The notes under the pieces are model-generated. The model saw only the letters and a list, made by a program, of their open reading frames with translations. It did not search any database and had not been told where the DNA came from. Both the position numbers and the translations under genes were made by a program. DNA of 64,000 nucleotides from Sedimentisphaerales bacterium. GTDB taxonomy: Bacteria; Planctomycetota; Phycisphaerae; Sedimentisphaerales; Anaerobacaceae. Each line of letters opens with the position of its first letter. The stretch's first letter is position 1. The stretch lies in contig OY970194.1 of the NCBI GenBank assembly GCA_963708075.1, positions 3,136,001 through 3,200,000 of the forward strand, in the 5' to 3' direction. This document shows, one piece after another, positions 53,355 to 64,000 of this stretch.

Positions 53355-54817
53355 ATGAGCCCGGAGCAGCAATCGCAGGAGACCCATAGCGGCAGTGAGT
53401 TTGAGCGAGAGCCGGTGCCGCAGAATCGACTGCTCGGCTTCCGAAGTTTCGTCGGCATGTACGCCGGCGAGCATACGGCCGGCACCGAGCTGATGATTGG
53501 CCCGCTGTTCGTAGCCGCGGGCGTCAGCGCGTTCGATGTCGTTGTCGGCCTGCTCGTGGGCAACCTGCTGGCGGTGCTGAGTTGGGTTTTTATGTGTGCC
53601 CCGATCGCCACGCGGGCGAGGCTCACGCTGTACTACCAATTGGAAAAGATCTGCGGGCGGCAGTCTTGTGACGCTCTACGACCTGGCCAACGGCGTGATG
53701 TTCTGCATCCTCGCCGGGGCGATGGTGACGGTCTCCGCCACGGCCTTGGGCGTCTGGTTCCACTTCGAGATGCCTGCGCTGGACGACCTCTATCCCAACA
53801 GCATCGGCTGGGTTATCGCCGTGCTCGTATCCGGTGCGATGATTGCTGTTGTGGCCGCGTACGGGTATCAGATCGTTGCCAAGGTCGGAGAAATCGCCGC
53901 ACCGTGGATGGTGCTGGTGTTCATCGCGTTCGGACTCGTCGGCCTGCGGCAGTTCATCGATGCCACAGGAACTCAGATCACGAACCTGTCCGATGTATGG
54001 ATGCTCGCAAAAACGCAAATCTGGCAAGGGCGGCGCACCGCACTGCCGGGTCAGAGTGAAGTTCACGTTCTGGCACGTGATGTTCTTCGCGTGGTTCTGC
54101 AATATGGCGATGCACATCGGAATGTCCGACCTGTCCGTGCTGCGTTTCGCAAAGAAATCGTGGTACGGCGTGGCCAGCGGGACCGGCATGTTCCTCGGGC
54201 ACTACCTGGCATGGCTGGCGGCGTCCATCCTCTACGCGTTCCAAGTGCATCAGGACCCGAGCAATACGAAGGTCCTGCCCGGACCGCTCGCCTACCAGGC
54301 CGCCGGCCTGGCGGGACTCATCTGCGTGATCATCGCCGGCTGGACCACGGCCAACCCGACTATATATCGTGCCGGACTGGCCTTCCAGGCGGTCATCCCA
54401 AAGGCATCGCGATTCCGGGTGACACTGATCACGGGCGGCATCGCCACCGTGGCCGGGATGTTCCCGGCCATCACCATGAGGCTGCTGGACTTCGTGGCGC
54501 TTTATGGCTTGCTGCTGATGCCGATGGGTGCGGTGATCTTCGTGGACTTCTGGCTGATCCGTAAGTTCGGCCTGCAGAGCTACTACGCCGAGCGCTGCGG
54601 GGCCGCGTTCAACTGGGCCGCCGGCGCCGCCTGGCTCGTGACGCTGGCCATCGCCTTTATCCTGGTCAAGTACGCCGGCTTGCAGATTTTCTTCGTGTCG
54701 CTACCCGGCTGGTTCATCGCCGCAACACTCTATATCGGCTTGAGCGTGGTTTATCAACGAGTCGTCCGCCCGGTAATCGCCCAGCCCAAAGTCCGCCCCG
54801 GAATGGCACAGGCATAG
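53355..54817 (+). CDS. NCS1 (cytosine/purine permease) family transporter; two frameshifts (~53655, ~54055)
   Basis: EFEREPVP, YAGEHTAGTELMIGP; continues across ORFs 52851-54059, 53596-54564 and 53843-54817 (AGWTTANPTIYRAG). Confidence 0.85.
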
Positions 54818-55306: not shown

Positions 55307-55442
55307 AGCACAGTGCCCTGAGATCTGCCCAGACACCTTCTCATTAGGAACCGCAAAACCCAGTGGACACCGGAGAACAGATGTGCTAATAATAGCGGTT
55401 TTTGGAATGGGCCACGAATCTACGAAATGAGGTGCTGTTGTG

Positions 55443-57407
55443 ATGGATAAGGCGTTAGCGGATCTGATTCGGATTTCGAATGTTACGGGCAGGGACCCGG
55501 CGCTGGTGCTGGGCGGCGGCGGCAATACGTCGGTCAAGACCGGGGACGGCCGATACATGTATATCAAGGCCAGCGGCACGGCCCTGAAGGACATGTGCCG
55601 GGAGCGAGGCTGGCGGCGGCTGAAAATCGAGCCGGTCCTGGCCATCATCAAGGACAAATCGCTGCACAAGCTGGACGCCATCGCCCGGGAGAACACGGTC
55701 GTCAGCCGCCTGCTGGACGCGTGCGACGACGGCTGCGCCGGTGGTGCGCGACCATCCGTCGAATCGCACCTTCACGCCCTGCTCAAGCAGTACGTGATCC
55801 ATCTGCACCCGCTGGTCGTCTCCGCGTACGTCAACGCGAGAAACGGCCAGGCTGAAGTGCAGAAGCTCTTTGCCCGCGAGAAGTTCCCGCCGCTGTGGGT
55901 GCCCTACGCGAACCCCGGCTACATGCTCGCGAGGAAGATCGCTGCACTGGTCGAGGATTATCAGCAGCAACACGGCCGCAAACCTCAAATCCTGTTCCTC
56001 GCAAAGCACGGCGTATTCGTCACGGCTGACAGCGCCAACGGCGCTCTTCGGCTGGTCCGCAAGGTAATTGCACTGTGCCAGAGCAAGGTAAAGCCAATCG
56101 CGGTGCGATCCATCAGGTCACCGGCAACGGAGGACATCACCTCGGCCAAACTGGCGGTCCGCAAGGCCATATTCGAGGCGACTGGACAATATCTTCCGGT
56201 GAGTCACTTCCCTGCCACGAACAGCGTTGCTACGTTCATGGCCCATAGCGAAGCCAGAGCCCTGCTTGCCGCGCCGGCCCTTCACCCGGAGGAAATGGTC
56301 TATGCAAACGGGCCGGCTCTGTGGTGTGAAGATTCGCGATGCGAGAACATCCGTCGCAAGCTGCAAGCCCGCCTCAGCAGGGCGCCCAAGGCCCCGTCCG
56401 CCTTCCTCATCAAGGGTCTGGGCCTCTTCGTGGCCGCCGACAAGTCCATCGCTTCGCTGGTGGCAGAGATGGAGGACGGCTCCGTCACCGTGCGCATGCA
56501 CGCCCGGCGGTTCGGAGGCGTCGTCGGCCTGAGCAAACGGGAGCAGGAGTTCATCAACAACTGGGAATCCGAGGCCTTCCGCAGAAAGCTCGTCAGCGGC
56601 GAGGGCAAGGGCGACCTGAATAATCGCATCGCGGTGGTGACCGGCGCCGGCAGCGGGCTGGGCAGGAGCATCGCCGTCGGCGTGGCAAGGGCCGGAGCAT
56701 TGGTTGCGCTGACGGACATCGACGAGAAGGCCGCACAGGAGACCGCCACACTCATCTCCCGTGAGAGGTCGAAGAATCAGGTCAAGGTCCTCCCGTGCAA
56801 CGTCACGAGCGAAGCCAGTGTATGCCAAGCCTTCGAAGAGCTACTGTCCTACTGGGGCGGCCTCGATATCCTCGTCAATGCGGCGGGGATCGCGCCGGCA
56901 TACGCACTGGTGGATATGCCTGTAGACAAGTGGCGCATGGCGATGGAGGTGAACCTCACGGGGTACCTCCTGATGGCCCGCGAGGCGGCGAGAATCATGA
57001 TCGCGCAGGGCATGGGCGGAAGCGTCGTCAATCTCAGCTCCAAGTCCGGCCTGGACGCCAGCAAGAACAACACGGCCTATAATGCGACAAAAGCAGGCGA
57101 GCTTCATATGGCCCGTGGCTGGGCTCTGGAGCTTGGCGAGCACGGCATCCGCGTCAACAGCATCGCCCCCGGCAATGTATTCGAGGGTTCAAAGATCTGG
57201 AATCCAGAGTATATCAAGGTCTGTGCGAAGAAGTACGGGATCCGGCCCGAGGAAGTGATCCCCTACTACGTAAACAAGACGGCCTTGAGGCGGGAGATCA
57301 AGGGGCAGGACATCGCCGACGCCGTGGTGTTCCTGTGCTCCGACAAGGCCCGCACGATCACGGGACAGACTCTCGTCGCCGACTCAGGACAAGTGATGGT
57401 TCGGTGA
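55443..57407 (+). CDS. rhaD: Bifunctional class II aldolase / short-chain dehydrogenase (RhaD-SDR, RhaEW-like)
   Basis: GGGGNTSVK, IKASG, RPSVE..LH, IHLHP, KHG; C-terminal TGAGSGLG, NAAG, YNATK. Confidence 0.82.
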   Translation: MDKALADLIRISNVTGRDPALVLGGGGNTSVKTGDGRYMYIKASGTALKDMCRERGWRRLKIEPVLAIIKDKSLHKLDAIARENTVVSRLLDACDDGCAGGARPSVESHLHALLKQYVIHLHPLVVSAYVNARNGQAEVQKLFAREKFPPLWVPYANPGYMLARKIAALVEDYQQQHGRKPQILFLAKHGVFVTADSANGALRLVRKVIALCQSKVKPIAVRSIRSPATEDITSAKLAVRKAIFEATGQYLPVSHFPATNSVATFMAHSEARALLAAPALHPEEMVYANGPALWCEDSRCENIRRKLQARLSRAPKAPSAFLIKGLGLFVAADKSIASLVAEMEDGSVTVRMHARRFGGVVGLSKREQEFINNWESEAFRRKLVSGEGKGDLNNRIAVVTGAGSGLGRSIAVGVARAGALVALTDIDEKAAQETATLISRERSKNQVKVLPCNVTSEASVCQAFEELLSYWGGLDILVNAAGIAPAYALVDMPVDKWRMAMEVNLTGYLLMAREAARIMIAQGMGGSVVNLSSKSGLDASKNNTAYNATKAGELHMARGWALELGEHGIRVNSIAPGNVFEGSKIWNPEYIKVCAKKYGIRPEEVIPYYVNKTALRREIKGQDIADAVVFLCSDKARTITGQTLVADSGQVMVR

Positions 57408-57469: not shown

Positions 57470-57498
57470 TTGACAATTTGAGAGGGATCGTTTATAAG
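57470..57498 (+). promoter_or_regulatory. Near-consensus sigma70 promoter
   Basis: TTGACA (57470-75), 17 bp, TATAAG (57493-98); AT-rich UP-like tract upstream. Confidence 0.8.
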
Positions 57499-57504
57499 GA
57501 CGCA

Positions 57505-58125
57505 CGATAAGTCACATGGTCCTCAGTAAGGAGGAGGCCACACCGGATGGTAGGCCACGGACCATGCAACTCATGGAGGAGTGCCTCTTGCAGGATGCAG
57601 AGGCCTGACGACAGGAGAGTGTGTAGTGAAAAGGCTTTCACCACAGCCCGTGGTGAGTGTTCGGCCGCTCGTGTTGGAGAAAATGGGCGTCCGTCACCAG
57701 GGACATGCAGGGATGCGGATAGGCAGCCTTGATGCTACTCCCCCGTACGATGGCTCCGCACCGACAACGATCCACACCCGGGCACACGCGAGTTGGAATT
57801 CAGCCCGGCCCTCCGCATGTTCTGTCCGCTCTCGCATCACCAAACGCAAGCAAGGTGGGTTCAAATCCACTTCTCCCAAACAATCGGCCCGCGGCGGCGG
57901 GGATCAGTGCTGTGCCGAGACATCGTGCACGCAGTCTGTCCTGCCGGCGATCGGGCCCGTGATCTGTCCCGGGCGAGGTCCGGCGGCCCACACGCCGCAC
58001 GAGATATCGCGCGGAGTCCGGATATCCTATTCCAGTCCATACTTCTCTTCATCTCTCACTCTTAGTATTTGGGGCGCGGCCTCTCCTGCTCGACATGTTC
58101 TGACAAGGCCGCGCCCCCACCCATT
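57505..58125 (+). ncRNA. Candidate structured non-coding RNA (GGA-rich 5' part; 3' boundary uncertain, could extend to ~58540)
   Basis: Strong promoter, no convincing CDS, 12 GGA motifs in 57530-57719, several hairpins, 12-bp terminal stem at 58071-58117. Confidence 0.45.
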
Positions 58126-58127
58126 TT
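58071..58127 (+). terminator. GC-rich hairpin, possible terminator
   Basis: GGGGCGCGGCCT / AGGCCGCGCCCC perfect 12-bp stem; short T-tract a few nt downstream. Confidence 0.5.
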
Positions 58128-58541
58128 CCCGACACGGGAAAGGGAGAACTCCGGCTCCGTCTTCTGTACGAACACCGTGGAGCCTGAAGAGAGCGGGGGA
58201 TGCAGAGTGTGTCCAAATAGTTTCGCGGCATGGCTGTCAACCGTGGACGCGAGCCTGCGGCGTTGACCCGCAGGAGGCGACCACGTTTTCCCATAGCCCC
58301 GCACCGTGGCAATCCAGAGGACGCGTTGGGATGCTCAGTTGCAGAGCACGAATCCCAAAGTCGTGTCCTGACGGTCATGGCTTCAGCGACCTCTGGATTG
58401 CCTGATTTTACTGTGGGGCGGAGTCTTGCGGCCGGCTCAAGGAGGAGCCGGCCCCGCGAGGCCCGGGGATGGGCAGCCGCCAGCCGATGACCGGCTCAAG
58501 ATCAACGTAAGAGCCGCGGCAGGTTGAGCTCGTGCCTGCCG

Positions 58542-60949: not shown

Positions 60950-62348
60950 TTAGTACACCACATTCCGAGCGAGAACCAACACCCAGTCCGGCTCGCCGGC
61001 GGCGTTGCTGGCGATCGGGGTAAGATCACGCTTGCCTTCGTTGCGAAACGGAGAGCCTTCGACGGACTTGAATTGTCCGCTCGTCGGGTCGAACCATATG
61101 CCGGTGACAGGCCCGCGAAGGCGACCCATGTCCACTTGGATCGTCCCGCCGGTCGGTGCATACACAATCGCACCCGTGCCCTCGTCCGTGAGCGAGGCGG
61201 CCACAAAATTCGCCTGCTTCCACTGGCCATGGCCACCGATCACCAATTCGTGCTTCGTGTCCGGGATCAGCCGCCACCAGGCACACCCCTCCATCAATCG
61301 CCGGATGAGCGGGGCCTGTCGGACCGAGGCAACGTTCAAGACCTCCCGCCAGTTCGGCTCGAAGCGCCACAACCGCGTGCCAGCACAGTAGCCGCAGGCG
61401 CCGGAGAGAATCGCCCAGTACTCGTTGCGCCGGATGCGATATGGATTCCAGAGGTCTCCCTCTCTTAGCATCGGGCAATAGCTCGATGGCGTTGGGCTCG
61501 GCTTCGTAGCCGGTCTCGCCGAGGATGACGGGTCGGATGCGGTCGTTCCGCTGGTACTCCTTGCTCACCTGCAGGTATGAGGCGCCGTAGGTGTAGGCCA
61601 TGTTCACATCCAGCCAAGGCTCCTTGTTGAAGAAGTCGGCACTGGAGAACTCGTGCTCCATGTGCGCGGTGTGCAGATGGTGTGGCGCCTCCTGTTTGAT
61701 GGCAATCGCAAGCTCGTTCGCGCACTTGGCCAACCGCTCGTCAGCATTGCGGTCGCCGCAGTGCATCCACATCAGGTTCTTGAACCGCGCGTAGCGCCGG
61801 CCCAGGAAGTGGCCGTAGGTCCGGGCGCTCTCGGGTGTGACATGATGCATCCAGAGCCCGTTTCCCGCGCCGTACCAGAGGTCGGACATGATGACGAAGA
61901 AGCCTTGTCGGGTAACCTCCTCCATCACGGTGTCGGCGTATCGCCAGTAGGCTTCGACGGGCCTGGTGATGTCCTTCTCCGGCTCGAACGCCACGTTGCC
62001 GTAGGCGTCGCGCGAGGGCATGGCGCTGTCGTCGAGGATTTCCAGAAACAGCGTGTTGAACCCCTTGCTCTTGCGGTCGTCAAGAATGAGCCGCACGTCC
62101 TCCAGCTTGAGCTTCTGGAGAAACCACGGTGTGTCGCCCAGCAGAAAGAAGGGTTTGCCCCTGGAGTCCACCAGATAGCGACGGTTCTCGCTGGCCTTCA
62201 AAGGGAAAGTGATATCGCCGACGCCTGTTGTGGCATTGTTGTCATCCGCAAGCAGGAGGCTGTCGGGCAGCAACCCGGCAAGAGCCATGCGGCCAACCAC
62301 CGCACTCTGGCGAGCGAGAAAACTGCGACGTGTGAAACGCGATTCCAT
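60950..62348 (-). CDS. Tat-exported DUF4038 glycoside hydrolase-like protein with collagen-binding-like C-terminus; frameshift near 61462
   Basis: TRRSFL signal, PFFLLGDTPW, PVILGETGYE; continues in ORF 60950-61471 (WFDPTSG...DWVLVL). Confidence 0.85.
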
Positions 62349-62368
62349 GATGCAAATCTCCTTCGAGA

Positions 62369-64000
62369 TCAATGTTGTGAATCTGTAGAGGAGCTCCCCT
62401 GCTTCTTCCAGGCCCGGACATATTCGATGCGGAACGTCGAGGGAAGGTCCTTGTCGTCAGGCATGCCGAACCAGTCCGGCATCGTCTCACTGTCGAAGAT
62501 CAAGTACAGAGGCTGGTGCCAGTGCGTGTTTTGGACTCGCCGGACCAGCACACCATCAACGTAATACTGGATGTTGTCTTCGTCCCATTCCAAGCCGTAA
62601 ACGTGGAAGTCATCGGCCAGACGCCACGGCGCCTGCCAATCGCCGCCGATGGACCAATGCCGCTTTTCAGCCGGGGTGCGGAAGACGTGCACGTTCATGT
62701 GGCACTTATTCTCGTGGCCCGGGGCCTTGCCGCCGATCTCGAACACGTCGATCTCCGTCGCCCAGCCCGGCGTCGTGTCCTGCTGGAACCAGAAGGAGCT
62801 CGAACCGCCTGAATTCATCGGACGCGGCCTTGACTTCAAAGTACCCGTAGCAGGTGCGGTCCAGGCTGTGCACAGCGGCCGAAGTGTAGTCGTGATAGCC
62901 CTGTTTTCTGAACTCCTCCGGTACCGGCTCCTTGCGCATCGTCAGGAGCAACTGGCCGTGCTCGACCGTGACATTCTCAGCCTTGAAGAGAGCGGGCTGC
63001 CTCCCCTTCCACCACTCCATGTTGCGTACCCATTTGTTCGTGTCCAGAGAGCTGTTCTCAAACTCGTCGCTCATGGGCTCATATTTCACCCACACGCCGA
63101 CATCCGACTGGTGAGACAGCGGCAGAGAGTCCGTGACACGCTTGGGCGTCTCGCCAAGAGGTCCGACAAGCGTCCACTGGGCGGCGGCCTCCAGTACCTT
63201 TGCGGCCTCGGCAACTACCTTTCGCTCCTCGTCATCCAGTTGCTCGAACAATCGCCGGCCGCGCAGATCGAACGAGCGTCGTGGCTGTTGATCGGACGCA
63301 CCCCGCTGTGTCCCGTTGTGGAAACACCAGCCGGCGGCCCCACCCGCCACCGCGCCTCGCAAATCGGTCAGGAAATCAGCGGCCGTCGGCTCCCATTGCT
63401 CGTAGCCGCGTCGGAACGGCTCTTGATAATGCACCGGCACGACGCGCTCGATCTCCTTCATCAGCTTCAGGCATTCATGCGTCTTCGCCTCTGTCTGGCC
63501 CGGGGATTCGGCCTCCCGGGGCCGATGCGGGCTGAGGAAATCGGCGCCAACGGTCAACAGGGATTCACGCACGTCCTCGACACTGAGATCGTGTCCGCCA
63601 AATGAGGCGGTCACAAGACGCTGTGGATCGAGCCGGCGCACGCGGTCCCTCAATTGCTTTAGCTCCTCGGCACCGACATAGCGTGCGTCATGTACGTCGC
63701 GCTCGTTGGCAAGGTCGAGATACCAGTTGCGATACGGCTTCAGGGCATCAACCAGAGTCTCCACGGCACGCAAATGCGCCTCGGAATTCGGCAACAGCTC
63801 ACCTCGTGTGAGTGTGACATCGACGACGAGTCCCCGGCGATCGCACTGAGCCACAAGCCACTTGAGTCTGCCCAGGAATGGCTCTCGCGCACGGCCCTGT
63901 GCGTCCACGGCCGAGACGTTGTTCTCGAAGGAACTCCAGGTAGCCCAGATGCGAAGCCAATTGAACCGGCGCTTCTGGAAATCATCCAGATCGCTGCGGA
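62369..64000 (-). CDS. GH5-like TIM-barrel plus GH16 fusion; 5'-truncated by window edge; frameshift near 62826
   Basis: Frame open to the window end (FNWLRIWATW, DLANE, HYQEP); MSDEFE, YGYFEVK, then EIDVFE (ExDxxE) and FHVYGLEW in ORF 62369-62839. Confidence 0.82.

Follow-up and report, generated by a model that had tools for sequence, protein, structure and literature searches.

A probably translated RNA without a conserved protein in Sedimentisphaerales, very probably descended from a ribosome-arrest cassette

What is transcribed from a promoter that points into more than a kilobase of DNA with no evident gene? The question is raised by a locus in a 64,000-nt stretch of a Sedimentisphaerales genome (hereafter the window), for which a preliminary description had noted a TTGACA-17-TATAAG promoter and a GGA-rich transcript, and had proposed a CsrA-sequestering sponge RNA. 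The comparison of its homologues shows the locus to be real and conserved, and no description of it was found in the literature searched. It is very probably a cargo-less translated descendant of an arrest-peptide gene, and is neither a CsrB-type sponge nor any longer an arrest-peptide gene. In our estimate there is an even chance that the part first flagged holds the promoter and the 5′ leader of a regulatory RNA of ~0.9 kb, translated and derived from a ribosome-arrest cassette.

The unit spans ~905 nt (about 57505-58410, Table 1) and has counterparts in 38 Sedimentisphaerales genomes, a comparison that bears out the core of the earlier proposal, namely a conserved, promoter-led structured RNA in a CsrA-bearing planctomycete. 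Its blocks follow each other as promoter, structured leader of ~100 nt (P1, site 1, site 2 and P3), open reading frame, CU tract, hairpin P4, 3′ motif and terminator-like stem, with variable spacers that bring the unit length to about 480–1,000 nt. A DNA search gave matches in 5 of 40 relatives. Anchoring on the upstream dehydrogenase, present in 22 of 23 other same-genus genomes, located the element after each copy; L015, a second dehydrogenase copy in G007, is not followed by one, and in G010 neither dehydrogenase nor element was found (L and G label loci and genomes, G000 being the 7.5-Mb genome of the window, with a completeness of 93%). A pattern scan of genome contigs yielded 36 loci in Sedimentisphaerales, Phycisphaerae or Planctomycetota MAGs, 15 of them new. 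The working set thus comprises 38 loci from 38 genomes (23 in the discovery set and 15 in the new set, with L010 replaced by its longer copy L038), and, the loci being related by descent, the counts given below overstate independence.

Table 1. Positions of the features in the window and, for the cargo paralogues, in the genome G000.
Feature	Positions	Strand	Basis or remark
Upstream neighbour, aldolase II + short-chain dehydrogenase (rhamnose cluster with RhaA, RhaT)	55440..57407	+	context
σ70-type promoter: −35 TTGACA (57470-57475), 17 nt, −10 TATAAG (57493-57498)	57470..57498	+	start predicted near 57505
Leader stem P1, formed by 57515-57522 and 57559-57566, around site 1 and an inner hairpin that varies	57515..57566	+	90% of cells paired, 3 pairs with two-sided changes
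Site 1, A-N-GGAGGAG	57528..57536	+	GGAGGAG invariant in 38/38; can pair with upstream UCC
Site 2, U-C-ANGGAN-G-A mini-hairpin, CsrA/RsmE-type hexaloop	57569..57582	+	stem 91% paired, no two-sided change
Hairpin P3, bearing the ribosome-binding site of the open frame (loop or 3′ strand)	57583..57604	+	98% paired
Open frame, 266 codons, protein sequence not conserved	57605..58405	+	CTG where homologues have ATG
CU tract, single-stranded, conserved, apparent relic of FSPxxI codons	58041..58063	+	comparison with arrest-peptide codons
Hairpin P4, GC-rich	58071..58117	+	12/14 pairs with compensatory changes (37 sequences)
3′ motif GCCCCGCAYCGYGG, single-stranded in the fold and confined to the cargo-less group	58296..58309	+	37/38 loci; Ns mask it in the remaining one
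Terminator-like stem of 13 bp at the end (58308-58320 paired to 58390-58402), with an interior of variable length, 14–116 nt, and a short U-rich tail	58308..58410	+	comparison
Cargo paralogue in G000	6047155-6047628	+	
Cargo paralogue in G000	7386059-7386571	−	
Cargo paralogue in G000	5882474-5883166	−	
Cargo paralogue in G000	945620-946249	−	
Cargo paralogue in G000	4209777-4210397	−	

Several simpler identities were set aside. A repeat or mobile element is ruled out by BLAST and three covariance models, which find a single copy, and the second covariance-model matches (L088/L128 and L134) lie inside coding genes and are false. ARAGORN calls no tRNA or tmRNA at the locus, the tmRNA being encoded elsewhere in the genome, and Rfam gave no match at the gathering threshold, only two chance ones at E 4 and 8. 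A conserved peptide within the leader was rejected, since its frames differ among homologues. The element adjoins the aldolase II/dehydrogenase gene in 22 of 22 same-genus genomes with a match; a link to rhamnose metabolism was nevertheless rejected, since L037 and all distant homologues sit elsewhere. On the 3′ side, the neighbouring gene lies on the opposite strand in 22 of 24 loci with a resolved neighbour, and is convergent in the window. Three gene regions of the window (60950-62372, 53596-54817 and 62369-63998) are split across frames and may contain assembly indels (two apiosidase-like pieces cover successive parts of a single Pfam model), so that single-base frame calls elsewhere in the genome could be affected too.

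The promoter, correctly described in sequence, keeps its position in all 38 homologues: TTGAC lies 43–48 nt before the leader in each, and after the 17-nt spacer both letters of TA are kept, each in 37 of 38. A consensus promoter scanner does not call it (0 promoters) because the last T of the −10 box is missing. In most loci, although not in the window or L037, a conserved GTCCG(A/G)AAA motif, possibly a regulator site, stands ~85–90 nt before P1, upstream of the −35 box. A homologue turns up in metatranscriptomes: L047 is present in 16 of the 20 RNA runs listed, and contigs from four runs of four different studies cover its element. In two of these studies the contigs begin 15–20 nt past the predicted start, with library adapter attached and no cover just upstream, which is a weak hint of a transcription start near the predicted one. 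In run X2 one contig bridges the upstream gene and the element; the contigs of X1, X4 and X5 are deeper over the element than over the upstream gene, although contigs cannot rank expression or give strand or 3′ end, and the coverage stops at 1725, where the strain differs. These runs concern L047 and not the window.

The proposal of a sponge was founded on 12 GGA motifs in the first ~215 nt, all of whose positions are correct. This number lies above that of dinucleotide shuffles (mean 6.4; 12 is reached by 0.2% of dinucleotide and 1.5% of mononucleotide shuffles), yet 0.22% of the 215-nt segments of the genome hold at least as many. The density falls from 7.0 GGA per 100 nt in the leader to 3.5 in the first 40 nt of the open frame and to 2.3 and 1.9 beyond, the genome average being 1.9. 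Two invariant ANGGAGGAG sites are found in the leader of all 38 loci: GGAGGAG at site 1 and GGAGGA at site 2 do not vary, an A stands two positions ahead of them in 37 and 38 loci, respectively, and at site 2 the base between this A and GGA does vary. A further ANGGA is present in the first 40 nt of the open frame in 33 of the 38 loci, the window being among those without it. Site 2 has the form of the high-affinity CsrA/RsmE hexaloop, ANGGAX closed by C-G and U-A pairs (parts of PMC4005645).

As for folding, the leader is 92.9% paired in the comparison, a value matched by 2 of 500 shuffles, with modest covariation, whereas the 261-nt piece originally flagged folds no better than shuffles (z −0.64). 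The folds given for the 8-bp stem and for the hairpins ACTC/GAGT and GCCTCT/AGAGGC were confirmed. Already in L037, the nearest homologue, the ACC-GGAT-GGT and GC-AGGGAT-GC hairpins are absent, as are the last four GGA motifs (57676-57717), which fall in the variable part; the conservation expected of the GGA loops is thus confined to the leader. Its anti-Shine-Dalgarno sequence CCUCU can pair with either GGA site or with the 3′ strand of P3. That the GGAGGAG sites pair over long range with the CU tract was also considered and rejected, as cross-clade pairs are as strong as own pairs and site 1 barely beats shuffled tracts.

The host is suitably equipped. Where several csrA paralogues had been expected, G000 carries one; csrA was found in 145 of 151 family genomes and fliW in none of them. 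G000 itself likewise has no fliW, and encodes Rho, RNase E/G, flagellin and three exosortases; Hfq was not found in it (completeness 93%). With two ANGGA sites, one of them in a hexaloop, and no FliW, CsrA binding is plausible from the sequence, although at the leader only and not at GGA loops throughout the RNA; a caveat is that ANGGA overlaps the Shine-Dalgarno-like GGAGG and that site 1 can be paired. Two host genes deserve mention in their own right: the single CsrA (L001, G000:1009819-1009974, − strand) has a ~40-residue K/E/T/P-rich tail, though fliW is found in 0 of 151 family genomes, and a second, shorter Rho-like frame of 373 aa, below the family cut-off, lies at G000:5348462-5349565 (− strand).

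The region had been described as having no convincing gene. On the contrary, P3 is followed by a frame that selection keeps open. ATG stands directly after P3 in 18 of the 23 discovery loci and in all 15 new ones; in four loci with TTG, ACG or AAG at this place an ATG follows in frame two codons later, and in the window an in-frame AGGAG-8 nt-GTG lies at 57613-57628, 21 nt past its CTG. From the start to the end of P4, the 38 loci contain no stop codon in frame against 79 and 73 in the other frames, and ~89 stop-creating changes would be expected along a spanning tree, 19 of them on close edges alone. The count up to the 3′ motif, with L038 listed apart, gave 1 in frame against 48 and 43 (77 expected) in the discovery set, and 1 against 51 and 64 (80 expected) in the new set. 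Stops have thus been purged over about 3,250 substitutions.

The protein, in contrast, is not conserved, so that the dN/dS comparison suggested earlier separates the two: the frame is kept and its product is not. Neither Pfam nor NCBIfam has a match to the 266 codons. Differences between close relatives fall on the three codon positions at 9.1/7.9/10.7% (66/57/77, p 0.22, six disjoint pairs), compared with 2.2/0.7/18.5% (13/4/111, four pairs with data) in the upstream gene; this test replaced Nei-Gojobori omega values of 0.4–1.2, which ignore transition bias and for which some control rows were misaligned. GC content by codon position is 0.61/0.62/0.63, base and amino-acid composition are like those of shuffles, and the frame is barely C-rich (C 0.31–0.34, G 0.28–0.30). 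A frame kept open with no codon-position bias and a random-like composition argues for selection on being translated, not on the product. Its length varies from 114 to 271 aa, frameshifts separate the close relatives L019/L020 and L013/L014, and different loci read the CU/P4 block in different frames, three in all. N-termini do resemble one another within clades, and 14 of 15 loci of the genus-g20-type clade read the CU block in one and the same frame, which could also come from protein constraint. The stop always lies at least 28 nt past P4; in 11 of the 15 new loci it falls exactly 2 nt before the 3′ motif, and in clade A many frames extend into the terminal stem or beyond it. Inside the frame of the window, a T-loop-like GGTTCAAATCC hairpin (57857-57872) was noticed, which ARAGORN does not call and which was not seen in the homologues.

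The origin of this arrangement was traced through the leader. A leader-only covariance model from the cargo-less group matched 15 of 150 family genomes. Seven of its loci belong to four further genera, and there RGPP closes the frame behind P3 and a secreted-protein gene comes next. A second model reached 19 of 150 genomes and added eight true loci (three full upstream open reading frames (uORFs) with RGPP, five truncated or degenerate), and found nothing real outside the family among 149 genomes of the order. Sequence comparison gives the ancestral unit as leader, uORF and a PEP-CTERM or other secreted-protein gene. The uORF has a signal-like N-terminus, an LPAVP/GFxCxSLVRDRR PEP-CTERM-like membrane segment (both read by eye from the alignment), a linker and a C-terminal FSPAFIFxxLxRGPP. 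RGPP is a robust arrest motif, enriched at the C-termini of small secretory uORFs, and arrest by RAPP/RGPP has been demonstrated (parts of PMC12992588).

We call the full uORF the monitor, and its atlas lead is SecM (0.88). It was found in 89 of 200 family genomes, though not in G000. A different RGPP leader, beside an exosortase gene, lies at G000:2027905-2028516 and is not matched by the monitor profile. Among 23 loci outside the training set, 21 end in RGPP and the others in RSPP and HGPP, and the leader lies at the expected place in 10 at E≤1 (4 at E≤0.002). In the 20 of these 23 with a resolved downstream gene, 19 products end in IPAPGAILLG...WLRRRR, a PEP-CTERM-like tail that is below the Pfam cut-off in the one protein tested. 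The monitor loci (L143-L172; an example is L086:1610-2335, + strand) stand upstream of PEP-CTERM genes and have no Pfam or NCBIfam name, and they make a candidate for a family-wide monitor of the PEP-CTERM/exosortase pathway. In 8 of 10 ancestral loci a same-strand downstream gene begins 85–143 nt after the Arg codon. Unmasking of the cargo ribosome-binding site in the manner of SecM was not shown by folding, a clear shift freeing this site being seen in 1 of 11 folded loci (L085). One locus, L131 in G265, is a paralogous leader with a truncated uORF in a genome with three leader copies; the gene behind it we take to be a WecA/MraY-type glycosyltransferase.

Between the monitor and the window stands a series of forms: the full monitor with PEP-CTERM cargo, a shorter uORF, still with RGPP, before an unnamed secreted cargo (L081-L083, L085, L087), a junk open frame with cargo (L038), and a junk frame without cargo (the window and 36 others). 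In L038, the stop of the junk frame overlaps the start of the secreted-protein gene, which lies between P4 and the 3′ motif; in the other loci no cargo remnant is found there. In the group of the window, the uORF is without signal and membrane segment, RGPP is lost in 38 of 38 loci and the cargo gene in 37. The direction from full monitor to cargo-less RNA is suggested by how much more widely the full form occurs, and not by a rooted tree; the upstream-protein tree leaves L038 in an unresolved fork, so that cargo loss and cargo regain are both possible.

Judging by the alignments, the arrest codons survive as the CU tract plus a new, strong hairpin, P4. The monitor consensus FSPAFIFDNLARGPP aligns with FSPLLISHKVLRGPT, as the CU tract most often reads. 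Its codon consensus was matched to the DNA of nine loci, and in eight of them the best match coincides exactly with the tract (19–25 of 42 versus ~11), the match being weakest for the window (19 of 42). The match fails for L047, which scores best at its counterpart of 58293-58325, in the 3′ motif region. In the window itself, one frame of this region reads SPAPWQSRG(P), faintly like the arrest consensus and possibly a second relic. The 5′ strand of P4 appears to hold the relic of the Arg-Gly-Pro codons, read as RGL one base out of frame in the window. RGPP is present in 0 of 38 loci and an in-frame RGP in 4, and two clade A members read RGPT or RGPG; a programmed frameshift restoring RGPP was rejected, as the second Pro is missing in every register inspected. 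The leader has changed as well. In ancestral leaders site 1 is part of a CUCC/GGAG hairpin, and most are without the ANGGA that is fixed at site 2 in the cargo-less group, its GGA being present in 2 of 12 pattern-matched ancestral leaders, with further bearers among other distant loci. At the 3′ end, the motif gave 36 exact pattern matches among genome contigs, and all 13 pairs of the terminal stem are kept in the 36 loci that show it, two columns having two-sided changes. Descent from an arrest cassette, together with selection for an open frame, is very probable on these comparisons.

How such an RNA might work can be proposed with less confidence. Ribosomes would have to run over the CU tract and P4, and P4 may pause them in any frame. 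It starts ~30 nt after the beginning of the CU tract, at the former RGP-codon site. One ribosome footprint is ~30 nt; since the tract fills the ~30 nt before P4, a ribosome paused at the base of P4 would cover it, whichever frame is read. With translation off, the tract would lie bare as an anti-Shine-Dalgarno-like seed, and such gating by translation has, we believe, slightly less than an even chance of being correct. A natural input would be CsrA, whose sites cluster around the ribosome-binding hairpin as in pgaA and psl: bound to sites 1 and 2 and the ribosome-binding site of P3, it could shut translation and free the CU tract. This role of CsrA is put forward tentatively, and the mechanism overall is possible rather than probable. 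Once freed, the tract might pair with mRNAs of secreted proteins at their purine-rich start regions, and among these the former cargo family would be the first to consider.

G000 contains five paralogues of this family, an unnamed secreted protein of ~150 aa (atlas lead SCPU-like, 0.90). The 5′ regions of several of these genes are long and share motifs, among them a CU-rich stretch and, ahead of the start, a conserved run rich in purines. A TTGACA promoter of its own precedes one paralogue, and a short upstream frame of one contains RGPP. The CU tract of the window ranks the five at 6, 9, 35, 128 and 221 of 11,373 crude starts (z −2.8; 1 of 150 shuffles as good). The strongest pairing seen, −38.7 kcal/mol, is between the L037 tract and the paralogue start L142 in its own genome, G266; other CU tracts also pair well with this start. 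Over 21 genomes, pairing of own tract with own paralogue was no better than with tract and paralogue swapped (−1.71 versus −1.63, permutation p 0.24), and the own pairing ranks first only for the window and L037, so that the paralogues as targets are a lead only and trans-pairing with them appears distinctly unlikely. An arrest-peptide attenuator recast as a free RNA, in which P4 would stall ribosomes in any frame, the protein would be irrelevant and CsrA-set ribosome traffic would switch the CU seed against surface-protein mRNAs, is as a whole somewhat unlikely.

Could translation serve only to protect the transcript, from Rho acting at the CU tract or from RNase E/G, with the 3′ motif and terminal stem, or the whole RNA, as the working part and the CU tract as no seed at all? 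Rho and RNase E/G are indeed present, strong conservation is seen in the 3′ motif and stem, both of them novelties of the cargo-less group, the stop codons just before the 3′ motif in 11 of the 15 new loci are as expected for a 3′-UTR-derived RNA, and a coupling of CsrA and Rho is known for pgaA (parts of PMC7652899). Such protection is nevertheless unlikely, since the CU tract is only ~25 nt long in a barely C-rich frame, many clade A frames enter or cross the terminal stem, and Hfq was not found in G000. A CsrB/RsmZ-like sponge titrating CsrA through repeated GGA loops would agree with the GGA density of the leader, its two ANGGA sites, the frequency of L047 among the RNA runs listed, and a family in which csrA is nearly universal and, with fliW in 0 of 151 genomes, no known CsrA antagonist is present. 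A leader with three or four sites could itself act as a CsrA sink, as the flagellin mRNA of Campylobacter reportedly does. Only two invariant sites and one or two variable ones are found in 0.5–1 kb, however, with no repeats; the RNA is ~0.9 kb long, its frame is selected to stay open, its leader apparently descends from the 5′ UTR of an RGPP arrest cassette, there is no Rfam match to Csr/Rsm even at E 10, and the element occurs in 19 of 150 family genomes. In kind and extent the sponge first proposed is therefore highly unlikely.

The remaining two readings concern the frame itself. A real, fast-evolving disordered protein needing only its length or its first residues would account for the conserved start and ribosome-binding site, the similar N-termini within clades, and the frame and stop fixed in one clade; the missing codon-position signal, the shuffle-like composition, the frameshifts between close relatives and the range of lengths leave it a very small chance. 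That the locus is a dead relic of the arrest cassette was already disfavoured and is barely credible: RGPP is lost from every locus and the cargo from 37, degenerate copies occur in other genera and the window starts with CTG, but stops are purged, P4 covaries, a new 3′ module is conserved, the promoter is kept and a homologue is transcribed.

The cargo-less RNA was not found in the literature searched. CsrA is prevalent in Planctomycetota (parts of PMC13443453), and papers on CsrA and Planctomycetes mention no sRNA in title or abstract start; nothing was found that joins PEP-CTERM with an arrest peptide or exosortase with translation arrest, nor on a Sedimentisphaerales small RNA, nor related to sequence-independent leader translation. 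Ten supplements of PMC12992588 contain no PEP-CTERM or exosortase, and the monitor family may stand in its remaining data. If the proposed reading is true, translation of this gene would convey nothing beyond the absence of a stop codon, and CsrA would have here a first RNA partner in Planctomycetota. Genes of this kind are invisible to protein-conservation and ncRNA screens alike, and the locus points to what restrains CsrA in a family with csrA nearly everywhere and no FliW.

Among known systems, the ancestral form fits the RAPP/RGPP arrest peptides (ApdA, ApdP, ApcA, RQH uORFs, CruR and SecM; parts of PMC10987492 and PMC12992588), apparently sharing with them a small uORF, a localisation signal, RGPP near the C-terminus and a same-strand downstream gene. 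The RGPT and RGPG readings of clade A are among the motifs of ApcA-clustered uORFs, and for Phycisphaerales only the LPPP class is reported upstream of secA (both in parts of PMC10987492). The ancestral form differs from the members described in those parts in its cargo, PEP-CTERM or an unnamed secreted family instead of sec/yidC or metal genes, and in bearing a PEP-CTERM-like segment in the uORF itself; the window copy differs further in having no RGPP, signal peptide or downstream gene. CsrB, CsrC, RsmY and RsmZ, as covered in parts of PMC7652899 and PMC4005645, resemble it in ANGGA sites, one in a C-G/U-A-closed hexaloop, in an own promoter and a terminator-like end, and in a host with CsrA, here without FliW. 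RsmZ, however, has eight GGA in 127 nt (parts of PMC4005645 and PMC7652899), whereas here two to four conserved sites surround the ribosome-binding site of an RNA of 0.5–1 kb that is probably translated and has no Rfam match. The CsrA-repressed leaders of pgaA and psl (parts of PMC7652899) are similar in their several GGA sites around a Shine-Dalgarno hairpin and start codon, and in the anti-Shine-Dalgarno CCUCU; they differ in that the frame behind the present leader encodes no conserved protein. Taken together, the loci form a traceable series, with living intermediates, that leads from translational switching by a peptide to an RNA in which translation is retained and the protein given up. 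The rnTrpL attenuator RNA of Sinorhizobium meliloti is said to have taken a comparable step, from cis leader with a uORF to trans-acting RNA, reportedly being released by attenuation from a leader that still stands before its gene. At the present locus no such gene is left behind the leader, which has become a unit of its own, with a putative action in trans.
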